This document shows, piece by piece, positions 7,014 to 16,170 of a stretch of DNA of 64,000 nucleotides. Under the pieces are notes generated by a model. The model did no database searches. It was given only the letters and a program-made list of their open reading frames with translations, and was not told the origin of the DNA. Origin of the DNA: a virus (lineage: Duplodnaviria; Heunggongvirae; Uroviricota; Caudoviricetes). The stretch covers positions 64,001 to 128,000 of the IMG/VR virus record IMGVR_UViG_3300037010_001573. The stretch is one strand, 5' to 3'. The position numbers and the translations under genes were made by a program. How positions within the stretch are numbered: the first letter of the stretch is position 1; each line of letters begins with the position of its first letter.

Positions 7014-7715
7014 TTATGAATTTAATTTATAATGGGATGCTATTTCTATTGATTTAAAATATTCATCTCTAACTTCAGGTTTGTTTTTGAAAACTCCTGT
7101 TAACTCACTTGTAACCATTGCTGATCCTTTATGATTTGTTCCACGACACGATACACAATTATGTTCTCCTACTATAGAAACGGCTACACCAATATTACCT
7201 TCACACACTTTACTAACTGAGTTATGTATTGCTACTGTAAGTTGTTCTTGGATAGCTCCTCTTCGCCCAAAATGTTCTACTAGTCTATTAAGTTTGCTCA
7301 ACCCAATAACACGAGCATCTTCTCCAGGAATGTAAGCAATATGAACACGTCCTGTTATTGTTTCATGATGATGGCTACACATACTTGTTAAAGGTATATT
7401 TGTTTGTACTACCATTCCTTTAAAACCATCACTAGGGAATGAAGATATTGTAGGGGGAGCATCATACCTTCCTTTCCATTGTTCTAAAACATATTTCTTA
7501 GCAATACGTCTTGGAGTATCAGCACTATTTGGATCATTTTTCCAATCACAACCTAAAGCAGTTAAAAAATTACCATAAGCTTCAGCAGCAGCATCGATCA
7601 TTACTTCTTTATCTTCCTTGCTTAAAGGAAAACCAGGAGCAACCCCATTAGCTAACCCAACAGGAACTACTTCAAGATCATTGTAATTTTTTCGTCTATT
7701 GTCTTCTACGTTCAT
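7014..7715 (-). CDS. folE: GTP cyclohydrolase I
   Basis: DTPRRIAK, SMCSHH, VIGLSKLNR, IQEQLT, HNCVSCRG motifs. Confidence 0.96.
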   Translation of the reverse strand: MNVEDNRRKNYNDLEVVPVGLANGVAPGFPLSKEDKEVMIDAAAEAYGNFLTALGCDWKNDPNSADTPRRIAKKYVLEQWKGRYDAPPTISSFPSDGFKGMVVQTNIPLTSMCSHHHETITGRVHIAYIPGEDARVIGLSKLNRLVEHFGRRGAIQEQLTVAIHNSVSKVCEGNIGVAVSIVGEHNCVSCRGTNHKGSAMVTSELTGVFKNKPEVRDEYFKSIEIASHYKLNS

Positions 7716-7899
7716 AAATTATTGTTTTTTCTTTATTTGAAAATTTATATCCTCTAAATGTAATAAAATCTAATTCAATTTCCAAAAAATTTGCAATTTT
7801 TCTTACATCATCTATGGTAATTAAAGCATTACACCATTGCCACCATATTGAATTTAATATATCATTTATTGATATACCTGTTATTTTTAAATCTATCAT
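7696..7899 (-). CDS. Hypothetical protein
   Basis: ORF fills the gap between queE and folE. Confidence 0.4.
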   Translation of the reverse strand: MIDLKITGISINDILNSIWWQWCNALITIDDVRKIANFLEIELDFITFRGYKFSNKEKTIIYERRRQ

Positions 7900-7920
7900 G
7901 CTTTTTATTCTTGAATATTA

Positions 7921-8709
7921 TCACACACATCTCTCACTCTCAAAGGCAATAATGTGGGGCCTCCAAGTTAATCTATACCCATTATCACGCACCCAATTAA
8001 ATAATCTTGGATATGATTGAAATAAAGCTTCCCTTGTATCCCCACTAGGCATAAACCATACTTTATCTTGTGGTATATCTAACATTCTAATACAACCTAA
8101 TATTTCTTCTAATGTTTGTTGATCTTCACCACTCCATACTGGTTTTAGATGGTAATCAGAATGATACGCAATTGATTTAGACATAGCTTCATAATTTAAT
8201 CTAAATTTATTATGTTGTTTTATCATTTTTTCATCAACAATATATCCTTGCGGTGTTGATACTCCTATTTTTGGATTAGAATTACTAAACTTAGGACTAA
8301 TGCTAAGTAAATTAATAGGCCAATCAGTTTCAAGAAAATGACTCCCTTCCGTTTCCATAGTAATAAAAATTCCTCTTTCATGTGCAAAATGTGTTAGTTC
8401 GTTTACTAATTTAGGCCACATAGTGGGACTCCCTCCTGTAAGCATCATCTCAGTAATGTGAGGGTTATCATCATACATTTTAATGATGTCTTGAAAAGAA
8501 TATTGAGCTTTTTCTGGGTGGATTGATGTATACCAACTATCACACCACCCTCCATCACCAAAAAAACAACGATGAGTGCATCCAGTAGTTCTTATTATCA
8601 CTGTAGGATAACCTGCTCTGCTTCCTTCTGATTGTACGGCCGTATATAATTCAATAATTGCTGACTTTTTATCTTTTTCAACTTCAGTCATTCTTGTTAT
8701 TTGTCCCAT
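7921..8709 (-). CDS. queE: 7-carboxy-7-deazaguanine synthase (radical SAM)
   Basis: ELYTAVQSEGSRAGYP, IRTTGCTHRC...WCDS radical-SAM cysteines, LTGGSP, METEG, SISPK. Confidence 0.93.
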   Translation of the reverse strand: MGQITRMTEVEKDKKSAIIELYTAVQSEGSRAGYPTVIIRTTGCTHRCFFGDGGWCDSWYTSIHPEKAQYSFQDIIKMYDDNPHITEMMLTGGSPTMWPKLVNELTHFAHERGIFITMETEGSHFLETDWPINLLSISPKFSNSNPKIGVSTPQGYIVDEKMIKQHNKFRLNYEAMSKSIAYHSDYHLKPVWSGEDQQTLEEILGCIRMLDIPQDKVWFMPSGDTREALFQSYPRLFNWVRDNGYRLTWRPHIIAFESERCV

Positions 8710-8760
8710 CTTATTCTAAGTGTTGGCTTAATAATTTATTTATATTTTTGTGAAGATACA

Positions 8761-8790
8761 AAAAGGTTGGCGAGAAGCCAACCTATTTTT
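8761..8790. terminator. Intrinsic terminator after the lysis cassette
   Basis: Stem AGGTTGGC/GCCAACCT (8764-8784) flanked by A and T tracts. Confidence 0.75.
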
Positions 8791-8805
8791 AATATTTTTT
8801 TAAAA

Positions 8806-9444
8806 TTATTTATGTAAACTTATTTTCCAATACATTCCTCCTTGAATAGATACGTTTTTATCAGTTCCATAACCAGCTGCTAGAAAAAATATACGATCTT
8901 GTTTTGTTTTATATAATACTGAAGGTCCAACAAAATTAATAATATTTGTTTTATCAAATCCAGAAATACCACCAATATATATTTGGTCTTTAGGTAATTC
9001 TTTTACGATTTTAGTATCATAAATTGTTTTCTGGATGATAGTCGCTTTATAATTTCTACCTTTAATTTGATTTTGAGTAATTGTGTCTGTTATATTAATT
9101 ATCCCCAAATGATTATCCAAAGTTAAAGTATCTTTATAAACATATGTACTATAAAAATCTTCTACTATTTTTAATGTATCCAAATTTTTAGGTGGTTTAC
9201 CAGGTTGTGGTAATGAACGCCATATTGTCTTGCCAGGTTTATATACGGTTGTTATTTTAGGTATATAAATTGTATCAACAGTGTGTTTTACAACTTCATA
9301 TTTCTTTCCATCAATTTTTACAACATTCTTAGATGTTTGGCTATTACAACTATCTGTTATATTAGAAAAAAATAAAAATATCATTAAACCTAGTATAAGT
9401 AAGGTTTTAAGATCTAATTTTTTAAATAATGATTTGTCTTCCAT
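8806..9444 (-). CDS. Putative spanin-like lysis protein
   Basis: N-terminal TM helix followed by SC; C-terminal amphipathic beta strands ending GGMYWKISLHK; last gene of the lysis cassette. Confidence 0.5.
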   Translation of the reverse strand: MEDKSLFKKLDLKTLLILGLMIFLFFSNITDSCNSQTSKNVVKIDGKKYEVVKHTVDTIYIPKITTVYKPGKTIWRSLPQPGKPPKNLDTLKIVEDFYSTYVYKDTLTLDNHLGIINITDTITQNQIKGRNYKATIIQKTIYDTKIVKELPKDQIYIGGISGFDKTNIINFVGPSVLYKTKQDRIFFLAAGYGTDKNVSIQGGMYWKISLHK

Positions 9445-9445
9445 T

Positions 9446-9901
9446 TTATTCTTTTTCTAATTCTTTAATATGTTCTGATATTTGTTCCTCAATAACATCT
9501 TTATGTTTGTCTATTTTATCTAGGTATTTTGTTACTAAGTTGTTTGGGATTAAATCTACTTTAGATGCGTTTTTTAAAATAGAAATAATTTGAAATATTA
9601 AAAAAGGAGGTAATATAGTCGAACTTAACCAATCAACCCCATGGAATCCTTTTTGAATAGAAAGAACTATTGAAAGTAATATTACCCAAAACACAAATGT
9701 TTTTATAACTTTAATAGCTTTATACGTCTTAAAACCTTCTCGTTTTATACCGGCCCACATACCAAAAAAACCATCAGCAAATATAACCAAGGTTATTGCT
9801 AAATATTGATACACATTATCTATAACAAGATGATTAAAATATGATATTACGAATGAGAATAAAGTTGTCAATGATAATGTTATTATAGTTGTTGTTTTCA
9901 T
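9446..9901 (-). CDS. Holin-like membrane protein
   Basis: Several TM helices, IISILKNA-like motif, charged C-terminus; next to the endolysin. Confidence 0.7.
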   Translation of the reverse strand: MKTTTIITLSLTTLFSFVISYFNHLVIDNVYQYLAITLVIFADGFFGMWAGIKREGFKTYKAIKVIKTFVFWVILLSIVLSIQKGFHGVDWLSSTILPPFLIFQIISILKNASKVDLIPNNLVTKYLDKIDKHKDVIEEQISEHIKELEKE

Positions 9902-9906
9902 ATAAC

Positions 9907-10518
9907 CTATTTAACGTATTCGTAATATTTTTTAGTTTTTAATTTTCTATCATCCAAACCAAGTATACCTCCGTTAATTCTTTTTGTAAGAGCTGTAATT
10001 GATTTGTCATCTACACCTTGATCACATATTGACCATAAATTGTTATTCTCAAAGAAAAACAATGCAGATTCAAAAGCATATTGTGTTGCTACCAGATCAG
10101 GATTAGCCATTATTTCTGGGATTGATAAGTATTTTGCCAACATCATATAATTTTCTCTACCCGTTGTTTGAATTGCTCCTCTTCCTTTAAACCTCCATCC
10201 ATCACCCGAAGCTTCGTTCCCATTACCCATTCTATTACAATAGACATGGTTGGCTATCTTTTCTGGTTGTCTAGTATATATTTCTGATATATTTCCAGGA
10301 AAATATTTTGGAAATGTTTCTTTTAACCCTTGTGCATTGTAATTTAAATTTTCAATGAAAATAGTAAAACCACCGGTTTCATGTGATATTTGTCCGAAAA
10401 AATGAGCAGCTCTAAATGGTGTTAATTTAAAGTAACTCATCGCTTTATTCATTGTTGTTGGACCAAAAATACCATCTGGTATTAATCCCAACTTTTCTTG
10501 TAAATTTTTTAAACTCAT
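9907..10518 (-). CDS. Endolysin, glycoside hydrolase family 19 with N-terminal peptidoglycan-binding segment
   Basis: LQEKLGLIPDGIFGPTT, HFFGQISHETGG, ENLNY, FKGRGAIQTTGRENY, KRINGG. Confidence 0.92.
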   Translation of the reverse strand: MSLKNLQEKLGLIPDGIFGPTTMNKAMSYFKLTPFRAAHFFGQISHETGGFTIFIENLNYNAQGLKETFPKYFPGNISEIYTRQPEKIANHVYCNRMGNGNEASGDGWRFKGRGAIQTTGRENYMMLAKYLSIPEIMANPDLVATQYAFESALFFFENNNLWSICDQGVDDKSITALTKRINGGILGLDDRKLKTKKYYEYVK

Positions 10519-10521
10519 GTA

Positions 10522-10779
10522 TTAATCTGGAATGTTTGGTGTATTTGATGATGGTTTTCTAAATGAAGCAAATTTTTCTATTACATCAGGTAAGAAACTA
10601 CCTAAAGTAATATACATAAAAGCATCAAATATATATTCATTTAATTTTAATTCTTTTCCCATAAAATTAGCAACAATATCAGCTGTAAACCCCAATACCA
10701 TTACTATAAAAGCCATGAACCCAATTATAACTTTTTCATTATAATCGTTTGATTTTTTAAAAATATCTGTAAAAGCCAT
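10522..10779 (-). CDS. Small two-TM protein, possible holin or antiholin
   Basis: Two hydrophobic helices; first gene after an ATATTTAT motif in the lysis cassette. Confidence 0.55.
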   Translation of the reverse strand: MAFTDIFKKSNDYNEKVIIGFMAFIVMVLGFTADIVANFMGKELKLNEYIFDAFMYITLGSFLPDVIEKFASFRKPSSNTPNIPD

Positions 10780-10857
10780 AATATATTATAGTTTTAAATT
10801 AATACACATCAGTAATACAAAACAATTAAAAAACAATAACATGTTTATTATAAATAT

Positions 10858-10882
10858 AAAAAAGCTCAGTAATAACTGAGCT
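10858..10882 (-). terminator. Intrinsic terminator
   Basis: Stem AGCTCAGT/ACTGAGCT with 4-nt loop and T tract on the minus strand. Confidence 0.75.
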
Positions 10883-10903
10883 CTCTTTTAAAATATTGTA
10901 TTA

Positions 10904-11152
10904 TTATAACATCTTTCTTATCTTCTGTCCTAAATCAGAATCATTGGGTGTTTGTTTAATGATTTCACGAGAAACTAAAATATAATCATCCATGTTACGA
11001 ATAACATAAAGGGGAGTTATTATTTCTTTTTTAATATCATTTTCTTTTTCAATTAAATCGTCTATAAGATGATGTCCCATTTTATATAGTTTCGTATGTT
11101 TTTTTAAAAATATCTGGTCTGCATGGGTAAAATTCTCCTTGTACTCCTTCAA
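10904..11152 (-). CDS. Hypothetical protein
   Basis: ORF in the operon; the true start may be downstream of the annotated one. Confidence 0.45.
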   Translation of the reverse strand: MKEYKENFTHADQIFLKKHTKLYKMGHHLIDDLIEKENDIKKEIITPLYVIRNMDDYILVSREIIKQTPNDSDLGQKIRKML

Positions 11153-11414
11153 TAATAAAATATCCTATACTAGCAACCATTACTCCTTCTAAAGTATGTA
11201 CATCTAAATAATTTGTTTCAATTGGAGTATTTCCTTCATAAGCAATATGTTTATTTACTTTTCCATTACTAAATATGTAAATATCATTGGTATTACTTCC
11301 ATTCCATTGAATCGCTTTTATTTTTACTGGTTTCTTACGATATATTTTCCAAGGATGGTTATTTCCTAGGAAGTTTTTATCATAATAATTTTGATCTAAA
11401 TTATCTAATCCCAT
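11082..11414 (-). CDS. Conserved phage hypothetical protein
   Basis: YRKKPVKIKAIQW...TLEGVM...GYFIIEGVQGEFYPCRPDIF pattern typical of a widespread phage family. Confidence 0.7.
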   Translation of the reverse strand: MGLDNLDQNYYDKNFLGNNHPWKIYRKKPVKIKAIQWNGSNTNDIYIFSNGKVNKHIAYEGNTPIETNYLDVHTLEGVMVASIGYFIIEGVQGEFYPCRPDIFKKTYETI

Positions 11415-11415
11415 A

Positions 11416-11826
11416 TTAAAATGTAATTGTAGTTATCTCCTTAATTACTATAGTCTCAGGATCAAAATCTTTATCCAATTGTTTAGCTACTGTTAATTCT
11501 AAAGATACTCCTTTTTTAATTTCTACCCATAGTTCTTTTACAAATTTAGAAGAAATTACTTCATTCTTATCATTTCTTTCTACAGTAAAGACTGCTACTT
11601 TTACTTGTTTATCCATATTGTTTGAATGTGTTATTGTTTGTTGTAATAAATAATTTGCTGTATTCCCGAATGCTTTTAAATCTGTTAAATAAGTTTCCCC
11701 ACTTGATGGAAGGTTTATTATATTAGTATTCTCAATATATGGTGTTGTGCTCCAATTATTTGGATCATATACATTCACCCCAATTGTTCTATTAGTTGTA
11801 TTGTTTGTATTTGTTTGATTGAACAT
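11416..11826 (-). CDS. Hypothetical protein
   Basis: 136-aa ORF in operon context. Confidence 0.55.
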   Translation of the reverse strand: MFNQTNTNNTTNRTIGVNVYDPNNWSTTPYIENTNIINLPSSGETYLTDLKAFGNTANYLLQQTITHSNNMDKQVKVAVFTVERNDKNEVISSKFVKELWVEIKKGVSLELTVAKQLDKDFDPETIVIKEITTITF

Positions 11827-11830
11827 AGTC

Positions 11831-12718
11831 CTAATTGTTGTATTCTTTTAATACTTTTTGAACTGCATCTCTTGCAGTCTCCCATGTTACGGGTCCTGTT
11901 TCGTCTGCATAAGCAACGGGATCTTTTCTTCCTAATTTAATAAATGCTTCGATACGTTCTATTGAAGATGCTGACTTATAGTCTGAGAACCAAGTGTAAG
12001 TCTCTACCCAACCTCCTTCGTCTTTATACCCATCAGTAATACAAATTGGCTTATAAGATGTATTAGTTCTTGAATAAACTTCATCAAAATCTAATTCTAA
12101 CTCTTCACATAATACTTCTCCATCTTTTAAGATATCGAATTTATTACCTTCAAGATAGGGAGTAAAATATCCTACTTTTTCGGCTCCCCAATTTCCTAAA
12201 CGGAAAGCATTATCATCAGCATCTCTAAATTCAACTCTACAATCCGGGTAAATCGAAAAATCCCCAGCATGGATTCCTAATGCAATATCACACTGCTCTC
12301 CTGTACGATTTGCAATTGATAATGCTACGGCTTGAGAAATAGAAGCAAACATCTTGTTTCTGTTAGGAACAACTGTTTCTTTCATATTATCTTGCTCGTA
12401 ATGACCTTCTGGTACATCTTTACCTCCTGTTACTAAAGCTGAATCTAATAGATCAACTAATCCATCTAGTTTGATTTGACGGTAATTTACAGGAATATAC
12501 TTACCAAAATCTTCTCCTCTGTGATTAGTTTCGTAAAAGTTACTGTTAACGTAATCTACTAATGATTGAGCTCTCTCTAGCTCTACTCTGTGTTTTTGAC
12601 CATAGTCAAAACTTATGGCCGTAACAGTTGAGTATTCTTTTAAACAACGTAACAATAAGGTGCTGCTATCCATTCCACCTGAAAGTGAAACCACTACATG
12701 TTTTTTTAAATTTTGCAT
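11831..12718 (-). CDS. queC: 7-cyano-7-deazaguanine (preQ0) synthase
   Basis: VVVSLSGGMDS PP-loop, FDYGQKH, TVVPNRN, GIHAGDFSIYPDCR. Confidence 0.95.
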   Translation of the reverse strand: MQNLKKHVVVSLSGGMDSSTLLLRCLKEYSTVTAISFDYGQKHRVELERAQSLVDYVNSNFYETNHRGEDFGKYIPVNYRQIKLDGLVDLLDSALVTGGKDVPEGHYEQDNMKETVVPNRNKMFASISQAVALSIANRTGEQCDIALGIHAGDFSIYPDCRVEFRDADDNAFRLGNWGAEKVGYFTPYLEGNKFDILKDGEVLCEELELDFDEVYSRTNTSYKPICITDGYKDEGGWVETYTWFSDYKSASSIERIEAFIKLGRKDPVAYADETGPVTWETARDAVQKVLKEYNN

Positions 12719-12787
12719 ATTTTTAATTTTTAAAACTTTACTCCGGTATTTACAAATTATGGAGCTTTAAACTTTATTATAATATAA

Positions 12788-13202
12788 TTATTCTTTTTTG
12801 AGTTTCCAACGATTTTTAGCGGCTTCTTGCATCTTTAACCGAATTTCTTCTGATGGTTTTCTCCCTGTAGCAGCTTTACGTATCTTTTCATTTCTCTCTT
12901 CAGTATAAATTTTATCTTTCCAATCTGATATGTCCCTTTCCTTGGAGATAATCTCTAAGTTTTTGGTTTCTTTCTTGGGATGATTCTACATTCCATTTCC
13001 AATTTTTACCCTTATTAGCTCCTTTGTTACCACAATTTGTAGTGTCTTTTAATTTCCAGGTTTTACCTTGAGTGGTACTTTTTCCTATCATTCTTTTAGA
13101 TTGAGATTGTTTCCATTCTATAGTTTGAGATACAGGGTCATAACTTTTGTTTATTTTATTATAAAATAAAGGATTATTAGAGGCATCATAATATCTATTC
13201 AA
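12788..13202 (-). pseudogene. Degenerate homing endonuclease remnant (NUMOD3-type tail; catalytic domain missing; frameshifted)
   Basis: ORF 12912..13202 (YYDASNNPLFYNK...) continues in the +1 frame as ...KIYTEERNEKIRKAATGRKPSEEIRLKMQEAAKNRWKLKKE to TAA at 12788. Confidence 0.7.
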
Positions 13203-13238
13203 TGTAAATATATGAAAAAGTCAAAAGCTGCCATTTAG

Positions 13239-13283
13239 TTACATTCCTCCACTTAAGGATACCACAACATGTTTTTTAGACAT
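13239..13283 (-). pseudogene. Orphan 14-codon copy of the QueC N-terminus (MSKKHVVVSLSGGM-stop)
   Basis: Direct translation; KKHVVVSLSGGM is identical to QueC residues 5-16. Confidence 0.85.
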
Positions 13284-13343
13284 AATTTATAATCTAATTT
13301 GTGCCAGGTATTACTAGGATATAGGCAAATCCTTTTATAACTA

Positions 13344-13571
13344 CTATTTTTTCTCTCCTTCGTAAATCTTATTTCCGAAATATTCATCTAAAAATTCTCT
13401 TCGATAAAGCAATATAGTACCTTTGTAACGAGTATTATTAATTTGTCTTGTACCAATTGTTTCTTTTAGTTTTACAGCAGTATCAGCTACTTGTTTTCCT
13501 AAATCAGAACCTGCTGCTTTTCCTAAATAATCAAAAAGAGACATCATGTATGGGGGTTGTGTTTCTTGCAT
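13344..13571 (-). CDS. Hypothetical protein
   Basis: ORF in operon context. Confidence 0.6.
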   Translation of the reverse strand: MQETQPPYMMSLFDYLGKAAGSDLGKQVADTAVKLKETIGTRQINNTRYKGTILLYRREFLDEYFGNKIYEGEKK

Positions 13572-13699
13572 AACGATTTTATTTTAAATTTAAGTATTGA
13601 AAAATAACCAATAGCACCAGCTATTATTGGGGATGTATTTAATAAATGGGGGTGGCCTTCACCACAAGAACCAAACAAATGTCCTATTATTTCACCCAT
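13544..13699 (-). CDS. Small membrane peptide (51 aa) with CGEGHPH motif
   Basis: Manual translation MGEIIGHLFGSCGEGHPHLLNTSPIIAGAIGYFSILKFKIKSLCKKHNPHT. Confidence 0.45.
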   Translation of the reverse strand: MGEIIGHLFGSCGEGHPHLLNTSPIIAGAIGYFSILKFKIKSLCKKHNPHT

Positions 13700-13700
13700 C

Positions 13701-13844
13701 TTATTTAACCCCTTGAGATTTATAATGCTCTGCTTTTGAAAAATTATATGCAGATTGTTCTCTTCTTTCTAATTTTGCTTTTCCCAATGTTGGTAACCAC
13801 TCCATTAGTTGCATGTATTTACTTTTTGATGATGTTTTACTCAT
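13701..13844 (-). CDS. Small hypothetical protein (47 aa)
   Basis: Manual translation MSKTSSKSKYMQLMEWLPTLG...; tightly packed between neighbours. Confidence 0.45.
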   Translation of the reverse strand: MSKTSSKSKYMQLMEWLPTLGKAKLERREQSAYNFSKAEHYKSQGVK

Positions 13845-13850
13845 ATTTTT

Positions 13851-14639
13851 TTATTTATTACAAAATCTTTTAAATCTTTCTACATTAAATTTAATATCTT
13901 CTAATTGATTCTCCAAATTTAATTCCATAAATTCTTCTATTTTATTAGAGGGTTTTTCTAATAAACCAATATCACTATATCTGATGTTTAAAGCACCACA
14001 TATTATTGGATTTGAAGTATCAACAGAATTAATCATTCCTTTAGGCCAGTTATCTCTATAATGGGTAAATTCTTGAGGAGCAGAACATCCTAACAGATGT
14101 ATATAATGATGATCTTTAATTAAATTTTCATCTTTAAATTGTTCTAATAATAACACACGCCCAACAGCTTGGTTTGCTAATTTATTTTCAGTAGGACATA
14201 ATGTTTGGTATACTATAGAAGAATGATTAAAAGCAAAATGTTTATATCCAAGATCAATACAACTCTGAAATAATAATTTAATATCAGATACAGTTTCACC
14301 TTGTAATACAACCATCAATTGAGTTCTTTCAGGCATTTCATATTGTAACCAATGTTTAGCATTAACAGATGTTGTTATTTTGTCATTCCAAGCATCGGGT
14401 ACAATAAAAATATCAGGTTGAATTAGTTTTATTTTTTCACGTAAATCCGCTATAGTATGTGTTACACCTTCAAACAAACCATTATCCATTATGATAAATC
14501 TACCTTTTGCTCGAGCATCTATAAAATATTCTTTGTAAGTTTCATATTTATCTAACAAATGTGGTAAACAATATTCATAGTCATTCCATCCTAAACTATA
14601 AGGAAGCAAAGATAAAGGTAACTCATGTGAAATTTTCAT
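13851..14639 (-). CDS. TGT/DpdA-like transglycosylase-fold protein
   Basis: IIMDNGLFE (cf. TGT/DpdA DSG/DNG motif), FIVPD, HLLG and SVDTS (cf. catalytic Asp strand); lies between queC and queD. Confidence 0.6.
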   Translation of the reverse strand: MKISHELPLSLLPYSLGWNDYEYCLPHLLDKYETYKEYFIDARAKGRFIIMDNGLFEGVTHTIADLREKIKLIQPDIFIVPDAWNDKITTSVNAKHWLQYEMPERTQLMVVLQGETVSDIKLLFQSCIDLGYKHFAFNHSSIVYQTLCPTENKLANQAVGRVLLLEQFKDENLIKDHHYIHLLGCSAPQEFTHYRDNWPKGMINSVDTSNPIICGALNIRYSDIGLLEKPSNKIEEFMELNLENQLEDIKFNVERFKRFCNK

Positions 14640-14893
14640 TATCCTATAAATATTTTTAAATCACGTTCACTCATTATACCACTTTGTTTTTTAATAGAAC
14701 CATCTGTATTAACAACGACAGTTGTTGGAACATTTCTAATTTGGTATTCTATTATCAAATTGTTGGCTGAATCTACATCTATTGTTTCAAAATCAACATT
14801 CGGTGTTTGGTTAGCTACTTTATCAAAAGTAGGTTTATAAGATTGACAAGGTCGGCACCAAGTTCCACTAAATAATATTATTTTTTTCTTCAT
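14639..14893 (-). CDS. Thioredoxin
   Basis: WCRPC active site, IRNVPT. Confidence 0.9.
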   Translation of the reverse strand: MKKKIILFSGTWCRPCQSYKPTFDKVANQTPNVDFETIDVDSANNLIIEYQIRNVPTTVVVNTDGSIKKQSGIMSERDLKIFIG

Positions 14894-14898
14894 TTTTA

Positions 14899-15735
14899 TT
14901 ATTTTATTTTTCTATCATCGTATTCCAAAACTCCTTTAGAATCAGCATATGCTTTTATTTCATCAAACCGGGATATTCTAAAATTCTCACGTTCTTTTTC
15001 AGTAATACTTGCTGCTTTTACTTCAGTCCAACAGTTTGGGGTTTCATATATAACAACTCTATGAATTTTCAAACCTGTCGTTGAGTTTTTATACACTTCA
15101 TCAAACAATATTTCCATTGCTAAGAATACTTCACGTGAAATATTCTCAACAGAAGGATTACAATATTCTCCACGACCGTTTAAAGACATTTCCCATAATT
15201 TGGTACCGTATTCTTTAGTAGTATCGATAAGTTTTGTGTCTTTTGGGTTAAGAATCATACCATGATCTAATATATCATCAATCCATTGACAACCAACACG
15301 TTTGATTTCTTTAAAATCAATTGCATATCCTATTTCATCCATATTTTCAAAGGAAAACGTTAATTCGTAAAGATAAGTGTGTCCCACTTTATTAACATAG
15401 AGACTCTTTATTCTCTATTTCTTATAGTTTCCTATAAGTTTGGACTATATCATCACCAATTGGTGTTGGGCGCTCGTGGAGGTAGTATTGTTAGGCTCAA
15501 CCTCTAGTCTCTGAACTTTTTTAATCCCTTTATCCTAGATTAAACTTAGCTGCTGATTTACTACTTAGTATACTTAATTTTGTATATACCTTTATGGCTT
15601 TAGTGTTCCAGCAATTCACCCAATTTTATATCCACCGACTCTTTAATGGATATTGAAGCACTTCATAAATTCATTCATTACTCTGTGTCCCGAATCAAAA
15701 TTACCTTTTCTAGATATATATTGAGTTTTATTCAT
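14899..15735 (-). CDS. queD: 6-carboxytetrahydropterin synthase, spliced: exon 1 15735-15646, exon 2 15384-14899 (191 aa)
   Basis: Exon 1 MNKTQYISRKGNFDSGHRVMNEFMKCFNIH joined to exon 2 GHTYLYELTF rebuilds the CxxxHGH active-site motif; also has NPSVENI and YETP. Confidence 0.92.
15385..15645 (-). ncRNA. Group I self-splicing intron, 261 nt, no ORF
   Basis: Exon ends in U with IGS GUGGAUAU pairing to AUAUCCAU; P3 UUGGGUG/CGCCCAA; P4 UUGCUG/CAGCAG; R UCAGAGACUA; S GAUAUAGUCC; P9 CUUAUAG-GAAA-CUAUAAG; terminal G. Confidence 0.93.
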
Positions 15736-15742
15736 TTTAACT

Positions 15743-15988
15743 TTAATTTTTTAATACAGAATGCACAATTAATTTATCCCCAATAAATTGTTTTTGTATG
15801 TTATATTTAATAAATGACAACAATCCAATTCTAACAACAGAAACGCTTTCACCTTTTTTATTATTAGTTAATCTTTGTTTTGTTCTGTTTTTTTGAGAAG
15901 GTCCTTGAATATAAGGGTTTTCTTGTGTAATAGGGTTAACTAAAACACCATTCTCATAAATTTTTACATAAGGTACATTTTTTTTCAT
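15743..15988 (-). CDS. Hypothetical protein
   Basis: 81-aa ORF just upstream of queD exon 1. Confidence 0.6.
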   Translation of the reverse strand: MKKNVPYVKIYENGVLVNPITQENPYIQGPSQKNRTKQRLTNNKKGESVSVVRIGLLSFIKYNIQKQFIGDKLIVHSVLKN

Positions 15989-16170
15989 TATTCTTCTATT
16001 TTAAAATTTATAATTTTTTTTTCTAAATCATCAACAATATTACTTATCTCATCAACTTGAGATTCGGTTATTTCATTTTTATTTGAGTATTTTTCCCTGA
16101 TTGAACGTTCTAGCTCAATCAGGTACTCTTGAAATTTATCCTCTTTTTCCATAACTAAATGTACAAACTT

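Follow-up and report, generated by a model that had tools for sequence, protein, structure and literature searches.

Among the closest described counterparts of the element reported here are the collaborative homing systems, in which an intron without an open reading frame (ORF) occurs with a nuclease gene beside the interrupted gene. In 2009, Zeng, Bonocora and Shub reportedly described the ORF-less psbA intron of cyanophage S-PM2 together with the free-standing F-CphI. A T3-type phage provides another case of collaborative homing (Bonocora and Shub 2009, PMC2856452), and in T4 the nrdB intron is driven by a free-standing nuclease, mobE (PMC2790892). Collaborative homing is an established process, as is the insertion of introns at critical codons (PMC3984707).

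The second point of comparison is the subgroup IA introns of phages, i.e., those of T4 td, nrdB and nrdD, Staphylococcus phage Twort orf142, and the DNA polymerase genes of SPO1 and the Bastillevirinae. The 261 nt intron at 15385-15645 of the window (the whole 64 kb stretch of viral DNA that was analysed) has the ribozyme core and P7.1 hairpin in common with these, and is likewise small, located in a highly conserved codon block of a nucleotide-metabolism gene, and supplied with an early in-frame stop. It differs from them in its host gene, which is queD of the 7-deazaguanine pathway, in lacking an intron-encoded endonuclease and a P2 helix and, compared with IA1 and IA2 introns, in having one hairpin where those carry P7.1 plus P7.2. 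The DNA polymerase intron of Herelleviridae is among its best DNA matches in cultured phages. With the collaborative homing systems (S-PM2 psbA/F-CphI, T3-type and T4 mobE) it shares the ORF-less intron and, in five relatives, a nuclease gene beside the interrupted gene. Unlike in those systems, the nuclease of the relatives, a candidate homing enzyme, is of the zinc-finger plus PD-(D/E)XK type, not HNH or GIY-YIG, and the genome carrying the 15385-15645 intron is without it.

No paper that places a group I intron in queD or another deazaguanine gene was found in a literature search, in agreement with the initial annotation of this DNA, which named no earlier intron in a deazaguanine biosynthesis gene. 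The reading preferred here, with a probability of about 0.9, is that of a functional, ORF-less, IA-type group I intron that is spliced from the queD pre-mRNA and that acts as selfish mobile DNA without a regulatory role.

The queD Gene and Its Genomic Context

Throughout this region the genes are on the minus strand. Exon 1 of queD (15646..15735, minus strand; ORF list) consists of 30 codons, beginning with the ATG at 15735 and ending in ...MKCFNIH, with CAT (15648-15646) as the last codon. It contributes the catalytic Cys, the His that serves as first zinc ligand, and the opening His of HGH. It matches positions 1-25 of the Pfam PTPS profile and shares 82-97% identity with the uninterrupted N-termini found in intron-less homologues. 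Exon 2 (14899..15384, minus strand; ORF list) has 161 codons plus a stop and starts GHTYLYELTF, the opening codons from 15384 being GGA CAC ACT TAT (GHTY). It matches PTPS positions 26-119 (E 2.3e-17), its PHROG match is QueD-like, and its best NCBIfam match is TIGR03367 QueD, at a score below the cut-off of that family. Because PTPS positions 1-25 and 26-119 abut, the 30-codon and 161-codon pieces together make up a single gene for QueD (6-carboxytetrahydropterin synthase), in which the C-x3-HGH motif is split after His30 and before Gly31. Joining the exons restores C-F-N-I-H-G-H, and across the join both the PTPS whole-domain profile match and the C-x3-HGH motif are present, giving a predicted QueD. 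The exon ends originally proposed (CFNIH and GHTY) and the 30-codon length of exon 1 hold in coordinates and sequence on the minus strand.

The junction is uninterrupted in 31 of 32 related viral queD loci in IMG/VR, reading ...MKC(F/Y)N(I/V/L/M)H-GHTYL..., so that the two exons, treated from the outset as parts of a single gene, are not normally separate proteins. The sole exception (L019) has its own RF00028 match of 91.6 bits at the same codon boundary. A two-chain QueD, encoded by separate genes with a structured spacer between them, would be compatible with a possible GTG start at 15387, which opens a 162-aa ORF. However, the pieces are contiguous in the PTPS profile and fused in those 31 relatives, the GTG is a false start within the 3′ tail of the intron that ORF callers have used, and the supposed spacer is an 88-bit group I intron, making this arrangement scarcely conceivable.

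Downstream of queD is the preQ0 (7-deazaguanine) pathway region (7014..14893, minus strand), as identified by Pfam and NCBIfam. It includes genes for a thioredoxin (14639-14893), a conserved 262-aa neighbour of unknown function (13851-14639, PHROG 19058), queC (11831-12718), a queE-like radical SAM gene (7921-8709) and folE (7014-7715), all on the minus strand. Since folE, the queE-like gene, queC and queD share this strand, the phage is predicted from its genes to be able to make preQ0. The gene order queD, 262-aa gene, queC is repeated in relatives. A DpdA identity for the 262-aa protein is not adopted here, as it has no Pfam, NCBIfam or PDB-sequence match and is placed only in PHROG 19058. 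Between nrdA and queD exon 1 are two small ORFs of 81 and 54 aa (15743-16152, minus strand), for which no homologues were found in the related loci or the libraries searched. The host group of these uncultured phages is probably Bacteroidota.

Identification of the Group I Intron

An Rfam search of nt 15200-15850 assigned 15385..15645 (minus strand, 261 nt, phase 0) to the group I intron family RF00028, with a score of 88.1 bits (E 4e-23) over the full model (1-253). The gathering score of this family is 50 bits, and the Infernal result upholds the initial identification of the intervening 261 nt: 15385-15645 is a real ORF-less group I intron. It opens with UAA, an in-frame stop, and closes with the omega-G at 15385. 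No endonuclease ORF is found inside it, the longest intron ORF being 29 aa (ORF list), and nhmmer with the intron alignment detected a single copy in the virus record (161,676 bp, 29% G+C).

When Rfam was searched with the whole 64-kb window, at either gathering or E-value thresholds, the 88-bit intron was not reported, and a genome-wide search with the RF00028 family likewise did not report it. These misses occurred because the speed filters of Infernal drop the AT-rich match in long input; the intron was recovered once the input was cut to 651 nt (15200-15850).

Introns at the Same Site in Related Phages

Nine further ORF-less introns were located at the same queD codon boundary in contigs of uncultured phages (L019, L103 and L156-L162). 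L103 was found by a core-motif scan, and L156-L162 by a search of IMG/VR with a pattern joining the J8/7-P7 core to the start of exon 2. Two other matches of the pattern scan (L153 and L155) were discarded as chance matches after translation. Applied to 185,579 prokaryote genomes, the pattern of core and exon-2 start gave zero matches and so, at its stringency, no sign of the intron in cellular or prophage queD. GenBank phages contained only two distant QueD relatives (36-38% identity), neither of them intron-bearing.

All ten introns are 234-261 nt in length, ORF-less, inserted after a U and ended by a G, and all (10/10) carry an in-frame stop at intron codon 1 or 2. The U.G splice pair, the omega-G and the J8/7-P7 core are also invariant in 10/10. 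The L103 intron (241 nt) resembles the 15385-15645 intron in insertion site and architecture, with an exon 1 that ends KCFHVH, and the two are 74% identical over shared columns. It comes from a different phage, the exon 2 of L103 QueD being 60% identical to that at 14899-15384, and its P1 guide (GUGGAC) differs and is complementary to the exon of L103 itself.

Predicted Secondary Structure and Covariation

The fold was drawn by hand on A2, the alignment of the ten same-site introns; all coordinates given here are on the minus strand. The P1 hairpin (15628..15653) has 8 bp, with the exon strand 15646-15653 (AUAUCCAU) paired to the internal guide 15628-15635 (GUGGAUAU), and the 5′ splice site is marked by the U15646.G15635 pair. 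P10 consists of 3 bp between the guide GUC in the P1 loop (15637-15639) and GAC of exon 2 (15381-15383). Both guides are complementary to the exons of their own phage. P3 (15617-15623 with 15466-15472) encloses the P4-P6 domain (span 15466..15623), which contains P4 (15608-15613 with 15551-15556), P5 (15601-15604 with 15560-15563), P6 (15548-15550 with 15515-15517) and P6a (15538-15544 with 15520-15526). The P7 pseudoknot (15505-15511 with 15442-15447, span 15442..15511), the guanosine-binding helix, pairs GAGACUA, with a bulged A15510, to UAGUCC; within it lie the P7.1 hairpin (15479-15504), P3′ and P8 (15454-15465). P9 (15421-15438) is capped by a GAAA tetraloop (15428-15431) and is followed by P9.1 (15397-15418). 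P2 is absent from the fold. An extension of P5 by about 26 nt, private to the 15385-15645 intron among the ten, forms a self-contained hairpin in a peripheral loop.

The minimum-free-energy fold of the 15385-15645 intron (z = -2.9) recovers P1, P3, P8, P9 and P9.1, and RNAalifold independently finds each non-pseudoknotted helix of the hand-drawn structure. All elements listed in the initial annotation, i.e., P1 with its U-G splice pair, P3, P4, P7, P8, the GAAA-capped P9 and the terminal G, are present in the fold, to which P5, P6/P6a, P9.1 and the 3-bp P10 can be added.

In the hand structure on A2, standard pairs occupy 95% of cells, compared with 35-44% in a control in which the partners were slid by 1-3 columns. 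Compensatory changes, affecting both sides, occur in 32 of 69 pairs, and none of 500 shuffles reached the observed values. P4 and P7 are paired in 100% of cells and P3 in 98%, and the outer pair of P7 changes from G-C to A-U in three sequences. By helix, compensatory pairs number 7/7 in P6a, 4/5 in P7.1, 4/6 in P8, 3/7 in P9 and 6/7 in P9.1. P10 (2-4 bp across the ten) survives changes of A-U to U-A and U-A to G-C, and the P1 guide covaries with wobble bases of the exon (AU, GC and CG at column pair 7/37). Together with the seamless PTPS coverage at 25|26 and the 31 uninterrupted homologues, the nine same-site introns and their covariation substantiate the claim that the intron splits the H|GH motif of QueD.

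The initial annotation had also suggested subgroup IA, on the basis of extra helices between P7 and P3. A covarying P7.1 is indeed present between P7 and P3′, as a single 5-bp hairpin with a conserved loop of 16-20 nt in which four of the five pairs covary, and to this extent the suggestion stands. Several extra helices were proposed, whereas only one hairpin is defined: a second helix (P7.2) in the P7.1 loop had no consistent definition across the ten sequences. A number within subgroup IA is left off because P2 is missing and there is one hairpin where IA1/IA2 have P7.1 and P7.2.

Could the intron be a decayed, splicing-dead relic, with queD a pseudogene and its function provided by a host QueD or by none? 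The private P5 insertion of about 26 nt might be taken as a sign of decay, and the lack of a partner endonuclease in the genome would fit an element past selection for mobility. Against this, the insertion is a self-contained hairpin in a peripheral loop, the core helices and junctions are all intact in a sequence that conforms to the covarying consensus, the splice-site U and the omega-G are present, and the P1 and P10 guides match their own exons. Both exons are also open and 89-93% identical to intact homologues, so loss of function is improbable.

For the preferred reading, a functional intron, the standard group I mechanism predicts the following course of splicing. The guide GUGGAUAU would pair with the last 8 bases of exon 1 to form P1, and an exogenous guanosine bound in P7 would attack on the 3′ side of U15646, the U of the splice-site pair. 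Exon 2 would then be held by the guide loop through P10, the omega-G15385 would enter the same site, and the exons would be ligated. The expected junction joins exon 1 ...AATATCCAT to GGACACACT..., and removal of the intron would thus link His30 to Gly31 and rebuild the zinc and catalytic motif C-x3-HGH. Because the intron opens with UAA, unspliced RNA gives only a 30-aa peptide.

Mutual Constraint of Intron and Exon

Synonymous differences in exon 1 (AUAUCCAU, CUCCAU, GUCCAU and GUGCAU) are tracked by the guide. The final codon of exon 1 is CAT, which supplies the U of the U.G splice pair, in all ten intron-bearing alleles; among 17 intron-less alleles, 5 have CAC instead. Where the codon before it encodes Ile, all six intron-bearing alleles use ATC; in intron-less IMG/VR contigs ATC occurs twice and ATT 26 times. 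This CAT/ATC bias indicates either that P1 constrains the exon, through selection for G-C pairs, or that flanking exon DNA was co-converted in homing. The only two intron-less IMG/VR queD alleles with an ATC-CAT junction are L166 (IMGVR_UViG_3300009702_000588) and L167, which may have lost the intron precisely or may offer ready-made targets for homing.

Distribution of the Intron and Related Elements

A maximum-likelihood tree was built from 39 QueD exon-2 sequences. Mapped on this tree, intron presence requires 8 changes, of which well-supported branches force 4 or more, and it is clustered no more than with shuffled labels. The nearest kin of the queD studied here (L001-L003, 89% identical) are intron-less. 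Such scattered presence, with intron-less close kin, is the pattern of a mobile element gained and lost repeatedly. Intron and exon distances were uncorrelated (Mantel r 0.17, p 0.25), in a comparison of 9 sequences that has low power. The intron-bearing and intron-less loci came from different searches, and their numbers therefore do not give comparable intron frequencies.

A near relative of the intron core lies inside a ribonucleotide reductase gene (L056:300-1250, minus strand) and has an HNH-like ORF inserted in one of its peripheral loops. BLASTN of the core matched, at 79% over 90 nt, the intron that separates the two pieces of the DNA-polymerase CDS in Bacillus phage Hakuna, and further matches fell in unannotated gaps in Clostridium and Staphylococcus phages. 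In each of three other viral contigs (L132, L085 and L069), the 3′ half of the core is matched at three separate places that lie within a few kb, which suggests genes with several related introns.

A different arrangement was seen at L014:2026-3483. A 5′ fragment of queD is present here as an 89-aa ORF, which resembles QueD over about 66 codons and has 86-87% identity to the queD at 15646-15735/14899-15384. Next come a 215-aa ORF with an HNH-like motif at its end and, after it, a complete queD that is more diverged. The arrangement resembles a homing-nuclease cassette that carried in a gene copy of its own and left the old queD start stranded.

A Nuclease Gene beside queD in Relatives

Five of the nine relatives (L019, L158, L159, L161 and L162) have a nuclease ORF directly upstream of queD (L019:2043-2717; L158:2269-2904, minus strand; L159:5839-6591; L162:6269-6550, minus strand). 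It is 212-250 aa in L019, L158 and L159, and in a short form in L161 and L162. No such ORF is found upstream of queD in any of about 30 intron-less loci. The introns and exons of L157 and L162 are identical and the nuclease ORF is present in L162 only.

The encoded proteins have a Cys-rich N-terminal region and a C-terminal domain, a layout of the zinc-finger plus PD-(D/E)XK type, and E105, D135 and E144 are invariant over 58 family members. PHROG matches are weak and are to endonucleases and Holliday-junction resolvases. Some family members match T7 endonuclease I, DUF790 or DUF1064 in Pfam, the L158 nuclease itself having no Pfam match, and a search of PDB sequences with the relatives' nuclease gave no match. 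Models of the C-domain have pLDDT values of 76-91, and their best fold matches are the Bax1 nuclease and the catalytic domain of the homing endonuclease I-Bth0305I, with Foldseek probabilities of 0.98-0.99 and weak E-values of about 0.007-0.02. At E <= 0.001 the family comprises 1,095 cluster representatives.

The presence of the nuclease gene next to queD in five relatives and its absence from about 30 intron-less loci suggest homing by a free-standing endonuclease, the link between nuclease and intron being visible in 5 of 9 loci that are not phylogenetically independent. Judged from these sequences, the odds that the relatives practise collaborative (trans) homing with this nuclease are about even.

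In the 161.7-kb genome that carries the 15385-15645 intron no member of the nuclease family was found, nor was one found in the record of L103. The place of the relatives' nuclease gene is filled by the 81-aa and 54-aa ORFs, which are without nuclease signal, so that this genome has no free-standing endonuclease next to queD. The 81-aa ORF gives no sign of being a nuclease remnant: its Pfam and PHROG matches are spurious, and its Atlas model has a pLDDT of 0.36 and no usable match. As the family is absent from the genome, mobility of the 15385-15645 copy remains a proposal.

For the selfish element favoured here, the following history is proposed. The intron occupies the gene's most strongly conserved codons and, within a clade of uncultured phages, is present in some lineages and absent from their close kin. 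In the relatives it would probably have spread with the free-standing PD-(D/E)XK nuclease encoded directly upstream of queD. The 15385-15645 copy may be due to vertical inheritance, or to co-conversion from other nuclease cassettes nearby.

Selfish Element or Regulator

A link between splicing and guanine-nucleotide status was raised, as speculation, in the initial annotation. Splicing of queD might respond to levels of guanine nucleotides or 7-deazaguanines and exert feedback on the pathway. Cellular GTP is normally far above the concentration that such ribozymes need. Group I splicing does require guanosine or GTP, the pathway begins from GTP, and in ten diverged phages the intron has stayed in one and the same gene of the pathway; there is also a known precedent in an allosteric group I ribozyme coupled to a riboswitch (PMC3984707). 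However, the Rfam search of nt 15200-15850 found no riboswitch aptamer, or any other family beside the intron, at E up to 10, and the gap between the start of exon 1 and the upstream ORF is only 6 nt. Most relatives are intron-less, among them the closest (89% identical), an intron closely related to this one occupies a ribonucleotide reductase gene and has an HNH-like ORF, and an adjoining nuclease gene is a signature of selfish spread. With no aptamer, a sporadic distribution and a nuclease beside queD in relatives, the suggested link finds no backing, and the evidence points to a selfish element rather than a regulator; feedback control of this kind appears very unlikely.

A selfish intron could, alternatively, have been co-opted, with 7-deazaguanine nucleosides or nucleotides competing with GTP in the guanosine pocket and splicing thereby acting as a valve on DNA hypermodification. 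The sole basis for this is the coincidence of cofactor and pathway, and we regard it as highly improbable.

Implications for Phage queD Genes and Their Introns

As a kind of element the intron is textbook; what is new is queD as the host gene, together with a candidate nuclease partner. The zinc-finger PD-(D/E)XK family adds a further candidate case of collaborative homing and is a possible source of rare-cutting enzymes, and the ten natural variants (234-261 nt, no P2) form a compact ribozyme set rich in covariation. Default Infernal filters lose an 88-bit intron in 64 kb of AT-rich input, and a blank Rfam scan of a long contig therefore does not equal absence; other introns in long AT-rich phage contigs may go undetected in the same way. 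Gene callers overlook the 30-codon exon and return a truncated QueD of 162 aa with a false GTG start, so that surveys of the deazaguanine pathway in phages would count queD as broken. The intron, together with the HNH cassette and duplicated queD start of L014, makes the queD-queC cluster in these phages a hot spot of selfish DNA.
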